From positions 71,794 to 135,793 of the forward strand of contig JARRQJ010000003.1 of the NCBI GenBank assembly GCA_037381915.1: a stretch of 64,000 nucleotides of DNA. Reading direction: 5' to 3'. Both the position numbers and the translations under genes were made by a program. The notes under the pieces are model-generated. The model did not search any database and was not told the DNA's origin. It saw only the letters and a program-made list of their open reading frames with translations. The DNA comes from Gammaproteobacteria bacterium (GTDB lineage Bacteria; Pseudomonadota; Gammaproteobacteria; DRLM01). Positions 4,853 to 5,500 of this stretch are shown one piece after another; position 1 is the first letter of the stretch, and each line of letters begins with the position of its first letter.

Positions 4853-5500
4853 ATGTCCGCAGTGAAGAAGTTAAAAGCCAAACCCGCAGCTTTGAAGGCT
4901 GCCAAAAAGGCCCCTACCAAGGCAAAGGGCGGCACCAAGTCCGCCGCCGCCAAACCCGCCAAAAAGGTCGCCGTCAAGAAAGCTCCGAGCAAACCCAGAG
5001 CGGCCACACCGAAGGTGGTAGCGTCCACGCCCAAGTCCGCCGCCAAGGCCAAGCCCAGACCCAAGGCCAGGCCCAACGGCGACTTGATGAGCTTCAAGAA
5101 TTACGAGCCCTATCCGCTGCGGAAGGGCGAGGAATACATGAACGAGGCCCAGGTGTCCCACTTCCGCAATATCCTCAACTCTTGGAAGAAGGAACTGATG
5201 GAAGAGGTGGATCGCACCATGCACTATATGCAGGATGAAGCGGCCAACTTTCCCGATCCCAATGACCGCGCCTCGCAGGAGTCCGATTTCACCTTGGAAC
5301 TGCGCGCCCGCGACCGGGAACGCAAACTCATCAAGAAAATCGATGAGGCCCTGCAACGCCTCGATGACCATGAATACGGCGAATGCGAAAGCTGCGGTGT
5401 GGAAATCGGCATCCGCCGCCTGGAGGCCCGCCCCACGGCCACCCTGTGCATCGACTGCAAGACCCTGGACGAAATCCGTGAAAAGCAAATGGGCGACTGA
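4853..5500 (+). CDS. dksA: RNA polymerase-binding transcription factor DksA with ~80-aa histone H1/AlgP-like Lys-Ala-Pro-rich N-terminal extension
   Basis: C-terminal 140 aa align closely with E. coli DksA ([22 protein letters not shown].DRA, 4-Cys zinc finger [26 protein letters not shown]); ATG at 4853 has GGAGAC RBS; N-terminus is [18 protein letters not shown] low-complexity. Confidence 0.85.
   Translation: [215 protein letters not shown]

Follow-up and report, generated by a model that had tools for sequence, protein, structure and literature searches.

Does a DksA protein with a long basic N-terminal tail exist as a translated product, and if so, what might the tail do? The question is raised by the dksA gene at 4853-5500 of a 64,000-nucleotide (64-kb) stretch of gammaproteobacterial DNA (contig JARRQJ010000003.1, hereafter the window), whose open reading frame (ORF) opens with a lysine-, alanine- and proline-rich (K/A/P-rich) extension ahead of an ordinary DksA. 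DksA is the main partner of guanosine tetraphosphate (ppGpp) in proteobacterial growth-rate and stress control, and nearly all mechanistic work on it that we know of uses the tail-less Escherichia coli protein. By a modest margin of confidence, we favour a DksA core joined to a translated, disordered, polycationic tail, which most likely serves as a non-specific tether to polyanions (chiefly DNA) or as a modulator of polymerase binding.

The DksA core and its N-terminal tail

An earlier note on this DNA had recognized a C-terminal DksA core with a DxxDxA tip and a C4 zinc finger, preceded by about 80 residues of K/A/P-rich sequence, and both observations were borne out. The features of the coding sequence are as follows:

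4853-5500, plus strand: complete dksA coding sequence including the stop codon, from ATG 4853 to TGA 5498-5500, 215 amino acids (aa)
4853-5086, plus strand: basic, K/A/P-rich N-terminal tail, predicted to be disordered (residues 1-78), as judged by composition, AlphaFold, the ratio of nonsynonymous to synonymous substitution rates (dN/dS) and the GC content of third codon positions (GC3)
5049-5076, plus strand: sole tandem repeat in the tail, 12 nt x 2.3 copies (CCAAGCCCAGAC, encoding KPRPKARP), from Tandem Repeats Finder (TRF)
5150-5362, plus strand: DksA coiled coil (DksA_N, residues 100-170), from Pfam, with AlphaFold helices 98-131 and 136-171
5255-5272, plus strand: DxxDxA tip, D135-P-N-D138-R-A140, invariant in 47 homologues
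5372-5464, plus strand: C4 zinc finger (zf-dksA_traR, residues 174-204), with cysteines C178, C181, C199 and C202

The product of ORF 4853-5500, identical to the 215-aa protein record P0001, has an orthodox DksA as its core (residues ~80-215). Pfam DksA_N was matched with an E-value of 1e-34 (119 bits, cut-off 27) and zf-dksA_traR with 6.5e-11 (42.5 bits, cut-off 24.9). The NCBIfam dksA equivalog model TIGR02420 gave 170.2 bits, above its cut-off of 115.5, and the enterobacterial model PRK10778 gave 221 bits, under its cut-off of 289. Residues 14-150 of E. coli DksA (PDB 1tjl, 5vsw, 7khe) align to residues 78-214 of the window protein (2.5e-61, offset +64).

In an alignment of 47 homologues (A3), the zinc cysteines, equivalent to E. 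coli C114, C117, C135 and C138, are invariant, as are H103 and Y87 (equivalents of E. coli His39 and Tyr23) and R155, K162, R193 and K203; K158 is nearly invariant (≥90%). The last five correspond to E. coli R91 (R155), K98 (K162), R129 (R193), K139 (K203) and K94 (K158), which we take to form ppGpp site 2 with the beta-prime rim. By these sequence criteria the gene is the organism's orthologous DksA, a factor of the RNA polymerase secondary channel acting with ppGpp. No second dksA was found by tblastn of the 64-kb window (best other match, E = 2.5).

The tail differs sharply in charge from this core, which by itself is acidic (net charge -9, isoelectric point (pI) 4.9), while the full protein has a pI of 9.6. 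The first 79 residues comprise 27% K, 27% A and 13% P (67% K+A+P), with one acidic and zero aromatic residues, a net charge of +23 and a pI of 11.9. An AlphaFold model built on the 47-sequence alignment shows the usual DksA helical hairpin, zinc finger and C-terminal helix beyond residue 77; for residues 1-77 the predicted local distance difference test score is <50 and secondary structure is absent, and the tail is accordingly predicted to be intrinsically disordered. A six-frame scan of the window for further K/A/P-rich stretches found none besides the dksA tail.

The likeness to histone H1 and AlgP tails proposed in the earlier note holds for composition and fails for homology, as the tail has no Pfam match and no KPAA array. 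Exact KPAA occurs in it once, and an array of the AlgP/PhaF type was rejected on the TRF result, which gives just the 12-nt repeat. Chlamydial Hc2 (Pfam PF07382) is likewise similar in composition: several of the longer homologue tails score 28-39 bits against this family (range 10.8-38.9 bits, all below the 40-bit cut-off), but the window tail has no match to it.

Translation of the tail

Whether the tail is made depends on which start codon is used, and the relevant features are these:

4840-4845, plus strand: Shine-Dalgarno sequence GGAGAC, with GGAG at 4840-4843, 9 nt before ATG 4853; invariant in alignment A2
5087-5089, plus strand: internal ATG (M79), without a Shine-Dalgarno sequence; the start chosen by the NCBI Prokaryotic Genome Annotation Pipeline (PGAP) for an identical 137-aa protein from a metagenome-assembled genome (MAG)
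4791-4819, plus strand: promoter-like block, with TTGCGT at 4791-4796, a 17-nt spacer, TGn at 4811-4813 and TATAGA at 4814-4819

The locus was compared with six syntenic relatives (A2), which share the order HD-domain gene, aminotransferase, HAD hydrolase (minus strand), then dksA and acs. The ribosome-binding site that the earlier note had assigned to ATG 4853 is supported by an anti-Shine-Dalgarno duplex energy of -6.6 kcal/mol (-6.4 to -6.6 in five relatives). At the internal ATG 5087 the energy is -2.5 kcal/mol, and background in-frame positions give -3.0 ± 2.7.

Selection on the upstream frame points the same way. Among the syntenic relatives, dN/dS is 0.14-0.34 in the tail and 0.01-0.07 in the core, and third-position changes in the tail outnumber those at positions 1 and 2. 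The tail has taken up several insertions or deletions (indels) where the core is free of them, and the ORF is open in every relative. The GC content of the tail by codon position (0.51/0.58/0.75) is that of coding sequence, with a GC3 of 0.76 in the core and 0.74-0.81 in neighbouring genes, and the codons chosen for K, A and P agree with those in the neighbouring genes. The first ~20 residues of the tail are strongly conserved within the clade. These comparisons show that selection acts on the composition of the tail rather than on its sequence.

The earlier note had named initiation at an internal methionine, at about 5090, as the result that would overturn a tailed product. Such a methionine exists and would give a DksA of canonical length, but it is residue 79, encoded by ATG 5087-5089. 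Its use as the main start is disfavoured by the missing Shine-Dalgarno sequence and by the alignment: the M79 column holds Met in 16 of the 47 tail-bearing homologues (A3), all with ≥93% core identity, and lacks it in the other 31, and throughout the 30 residues preceding the core a Met is absent from about half of the tail-bearing proteins. A minor isoform from M79 is possible. Through dN/dS, open frames, codon usage and start signals, comparative evidence shows translation of the tail, as the earlier note had claimed, so that the window protein has a translated K/A/P-rich extension like that of the Xanthomonas-type tailed DksA. We are confident that the tailed 215-aa protein from ATG 4853 is the main product. 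The longest mechanical ORF, starting at ATG 4805, was rejected, as none of the five aligned relatives has this codon, which falls within the conserved spacer of the promoter-like block.

The ~60 nt before ATG 4853, almost invariant in the relatives, hold TTGCGT-N17-(TGn)TATAGA and GGCCGGAGAC-N7-ATG. The promoter-like block itself is invariant in the six relatives, where synonymous sites range from diverged to saturated, and it may act as the dksA promoter. A strict consensus sigma-70 scan of 4400-5900 found no site; the block was missed because the last base of its -10 hexamer is A. Across the ~65 nt of window 4786-4852 (A2 columns ~127-197), the promoter-like block, a possible discriminator and the 5′ untranslated region are almost invariant in the six relatives, a constraint far exceeding what the Shine-Dalgarno site alone would need, and one that may reflect dksA autoregulation.

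As to neighbouring genes, the listed start of the downstream acs is ATG 5672, but the in-frame ATG 5684 is the likelier start because it has the better Shine-Dalgarno site (-7.8 versus -3.2 kcal/mol). An Rfam search of the 64-kb window matched a single transfer RNA gene, at 19295-19368 on the minus strand, and nothing else.

Distribution and precedents of tailed DksA

The earlier note described the extension as absent from canonical DksA and suggested an alignment with homologues to gauge its spread. The comparison showed the novelty to have been overestimated: the extension is widespread in Gammaproteobacteria and has precedents in Xanthomonas DksA and Streptomyces DdbA. A search with the full-length query returned >100 homologues of 200-257 aa among the matches listed. 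Scanning one genome per GTDB species gave 80 gammaproteobacterial loci, in which the tail was read as the frame upstream of a conserved P-Y anchor. Basic tails of ~50 to 333 aa were present in 37 of these loci (42 of 85 when the window and 4 syntenic loci are included), a proportion from a list ranked with the tailed query, which favours tailed matches. Tailed loci come from MAGs labelled Chromatiaceae, Thiohalomonadaceae, Ectothiorhodospiraceae, Granulosicoccaceae, Thiogranum, Ca. Tenderia and Thiotrichales. Loci of the Sedimenticola, Thiodiazotropha, Halopseudomonas, Methylococcus and Thiocapsa type are canonical, with 10-27 residues ahead of P-Y.

Bias from the tail was removed by using a core-only query (beginning at S80), searched against 1.84 billion cluster representatives, with the best 150 of the 50%-identity clusters retained and coordinates taken from phmmer. 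Half of these (75/150) carry basic tails of 56-318 aa (median 150, 27.7% K), a figure that describes diversity and not genome frequency, since canonical DksA collapses into few 50%-identity clusters and diverse tails split. The other 75 comprise 32 canonical proteins, 32 whose non-basic extensions probably reflect over-called starts, and 11 fragments.

On a neighbour-joining tree of the core the tail trait needs at least 13 changes, the tree being weakly resolved and the core highly conserved. Tail-less orthologues in related taxa begin M-x-x-KKK (MAAKKK or MPAKKK; L018, L022, L025, L030, L034, L039, L074 and others), and weakly basic intermediates of 40-54 aa are found at L027, L035, L054, L058 and L076. 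This pattern suggests that the tails may derive from a short ancestral N-terminal patch of basic residues that grew and shrank repeatedly.

At the other extreme are tails of >300 aa, which exceed the DksA core in size and hold some acidic residues (333 aa in L033, upstream of 3001; 318 aa in the 451-452-aa proteins P0132 and P0215). In 25 of the 150 best core representatives (P0133, P0167, P0187, P0272 and 21 others), 29-206 extra residues lie C-terminal of the core, which could be fusions, read-through or gene-calling artefacts. One Bacillota-labelled MAG (L019) has a tailed dksA of the gammaproteobacterial type (81% core identity), which points to a contaminated bin or a wrong label, and a Methylocaldum record of 5.3 Mb (L048) is titled "plasmid unnamed" although chromosome-sized.

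The tailed architecture is already documented as well as widespread. The closest precedent is dksA of Xanthomonas euvesicatoria, which Abendroth et al. (2017) re-annotated by proteogenomics from 147 to 256 aa, with a diagnostic mass spectrometry (MS) peptide, AAPAAAKPAAKPVASK, in the extension and the start assigned to the first GTG by start-codon mutagenesis (PMC5559785). An opposite-strand ORF over the extension was proposed for deletion, and the function of the extension was outside the scope of that study (PMC5559785). Compared by published description, the two proteins are alike in being gammaproteobacterial, in having a K/A/P-rich N-terminal extension overlooked by annotation and in an opposite-strand shadow ORF, whereas the Xanthomonas extension is longer (~109 aa), begins with GTG and belongs to another lineage. 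In the window, antisense shadow ORFs lie over dksA and its tail at 4871-5488 (minus strand, 205 aa) and 4828-5097 (minus strand, 89 aa); they resemble XCV2557, which was mistakenly annotated over the Xanthomonas dksA extension.

A second precedent is DdbA (SCO2075) of Streptomyces coelicolor, in which Aldridge et al. found an H1-like N-domain joined to a DksA-like domain (PMC3643593). In vitro the N-domain binds DNA and condenses it, giving a shift in electrophoretic mobility shift assays where the DksA-like domain alone gives none, and overexpression of DdbA suppresses relA phenotypes (PMC3643593). DdbA shares with the window protein a basic N-terminal region of DNA-binding type and a DksA-like domain. 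Unlike the window protein, it is an actinobacterial paralogue from a distant DksA-like lineage (BLAST E ~1e-10 to E. coli DksA), and its tail is made of (S/T)(A/T)AKK pentapeptide repeats (PMC3643593). The two fusions probably arose independently, sharing architecture and not ancestry of the fusion, because the window core is a gammaproteobacterial DksA orthologue and DdbA orthologues were found by its authors in streptomycetes only (PMC3643593).

Other comparisons are looser. Pseudomonas AlgP and PhaF also carry a disordered K/P/A-rich polycationic region on a functional domain, but theirs are C-terminal tails of 22-30 regular KPAA repeats and their partner domains are unrelated. Canonical E. 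coli DksA (151 aa; 1TJL, 5VSW, 7KHE; TIGR02420) has the same core, DxxDxA tip and C4 zinc finger, and lacks the ~78 additional basic, disordered N-terminal residues of the window protein. Myxobacterial CarD is said to carry an HMGA- or H1-like DNA-binding domain (work attributed to Garcia-Heras et al., 2009, as cited in PMC4374960). It too fuses an RNA-polymerase-binding module to a basic low-complexity DNA-binding region, but through a CarD_CdnL_TRCF fold that binds the beta subunit, with the basic region C-terminal and in another phylum. In the literature searched, which left subscription journals largely outside, no study of how a tailed proteobacterial DksA functions was found.

Possible roles of the tail

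How might such a tail work on this core? In the reading we favour, the core would act as in E. coli: the coiled coil would enter the secondary channel, bringing the DxxDxA tip near the active site, and the globular zinc-finger domain would sit on the beta-prime rim helices to form ppGpp site 2. The tail lysines would bind polyanions non-specifically, with DNA as the chief partner, so that DksA would be enriched on the nucleoid, and the tail could supply an additional DNA contact, or avidity, when DksA sits on promoter-bound polymerase. It would be attached at the secondary channel's rim, to an N-terminal segment that faces solvent. The tail runs straight into this segment, whose E. coli counterpart modulates polymerase affinity, and it may for that reason tune this affinity. 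Deleting the 18 N-terminal residues of E. coli DksA raised its activity and abolished its pH response, and the N-terminus was modelled as clashing with the rim helix (Furman et al., 2015; PMC4370453). In the window protein, the counterparts of the residues at that interface (E85, Y87, H103, E191) are conserved. DNA binding, tethering and any effect on activity are what we infer from sequence, and for DNA tethering or modulation as the tail's role, taken by itself, we put the chances at about even.

Several observations weigh against this reading. PGAP starts the identical MAG protein at M79, which makes it 137 aa long (P0061 / MEJ2553982.1), and a single open upstream frame of 79 codons is not very improbable by chance (P ~0.07 in shuffled sequence of the single genome); the case for translation rests for that reason on recurrence of the frame, alike in composition, in dozens of divergent genomes. 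The patchy distribution was read from a weakly resolved tree. A tail-only Pfam search returned 0 families at E ≤ 1, leaving the tail without a curated family match. In Xanthomonas, a processed shorter DksA occurs beside the full-length protein (PMC5559785), because of which the tail may also be cut from part of the DksA pool here. AlgP and PhaF have K/P/A tails that associate with DNA, polyphosphate (polyP) granules and RNA (PMC9239181, PMC11894788, PMC12818456), and as K/A/P tails elsewhere bind polyP or RNA besides DNA, any of the three could be the partner of the window tail.

The PGAP start is part of a wider pattern. The same pipeline gives 138 aa for a related Chromatiales protein, and its records P0061, P0125 and P0104 span 137-144 aa with starts at or near the internal Met; other sources annotate identical or close DksA proteins at 200-235 aa. 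Start truncation of tailed dksA genes in public annotation looks systematic, and databases would under-report the tailed architecture as a consequence of truncation by PGAP.

Among the alternatives, the one that survives best is compatible with the explanation above, though we would give it only about one chance in five: the gene may yield two products, a full-length tailed protein and a shorter DksA of canonical size, by cleavage near the junction of tail and core or weak initiation at M79, and their ratio would set tethered versus free DksA. The processed variant in Xanthomonas (PMC5559785) is a parallel, the junction ..GDLM(S/T/N)FKNY.. and M79 are conserved in all homologues with ≥93% core identity, and a disordered tail is an easy protease substrate. 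Initiation at M79, on the other hand, would have to proceed without a Shine-Dalgarno sequence, and M79 is missing beyond the closest clade.

It is rather unlikely that polyP or RNA, and not DNA, is the main partner of the tail, which would place DksA on polyP granules or RNA-rich condensates in starvation. The associations of the AlgP and PhaF tails favour it, as does a paper by Gray (2019), cited in the AlgP and PhaF literature, which in its title names DksA as a regulator of polyP accumulation in E. coli. Yet regular KPAA arrays like those in AlgP and PhaF are absent from the window tail, the sole DksA-family fusion that has been tested, DdbA, binds DNA (PMC3643593), and a polycation binds any polyanion in vitro, so that any specificity is putative.

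A bolder proposal, which we consider improbable, is that the tail serves as an electrostatic switch on DksA activity instead of a passive tether. In the free protein the tail might fold back on the acidic core, or might keep the adjoining N-terminal segment where it clashes with the beta-prime rim helix, so that RNA polymerase affinity would be lowered until DNA or starvation-induced polyP captured the tail and lifted the inhibition.

Slightly less probable still is a tail of no specific function, a nearly neutral low-complexity expansion that arose by replication slippage from the ancestral M-x-x-KKK patch and is tolerated since the DksA N-terminus points to solvent. Tail length is indeed continuous from 0 to >300 aa with poor sequence conservation, the core tree requires at least 13 gains or losses, weakly basic intermediates occur, and tail-less orthologues still start MAAKKK or MPAKKK. 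However, dN/dS lies well below 1, the basic, acid-poor composition is kept over very divergent lineages, and the first ~20 residues are strongly conserved within the clade.

Last, we regard as very improbable that the tail is untranslated, with ATG 5087 as the real start and the upstream frame an accident of GC-rich DNA: the PGAP calls, the chance probability of one frame and the activity that E. coli DksA retains without its first 18 residues, by which a short form would work (PMC4370453), are outweighed by purifying selection on a frame that survives indels, by coding-type GC3 and codon usage, by a Shine-Dalgarno sequence conserved at ATG 4853 and lacking at ATG 5087, by the many homologues without Met at or near M79, and by the detection of the equivalent Xanthomonas extension by MS and start-codon mutagenesis (PMC5559785).

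With translation of the tail and an orthodox core taken together, the window DksA joins a broad, functionally uncharacterized group of orthodox DksA proteins with polycationic disordered tails, carried by roughly half of the related species sampled. With DdbA and the re-annotated Xanthomonas DksA already known, the idea is hardly novel, and its value lies in breadth and testability and not in surprise: the tail would offer a simple, testable route by which a secondary-channel factor is coupled to the nucleoid or to polyP. If the tail were a switch, the potency of DksA would depend on the state of the nucleoid or of polyP, besides ppGpp, in a large unstudied set of Gammaproteobacteria.

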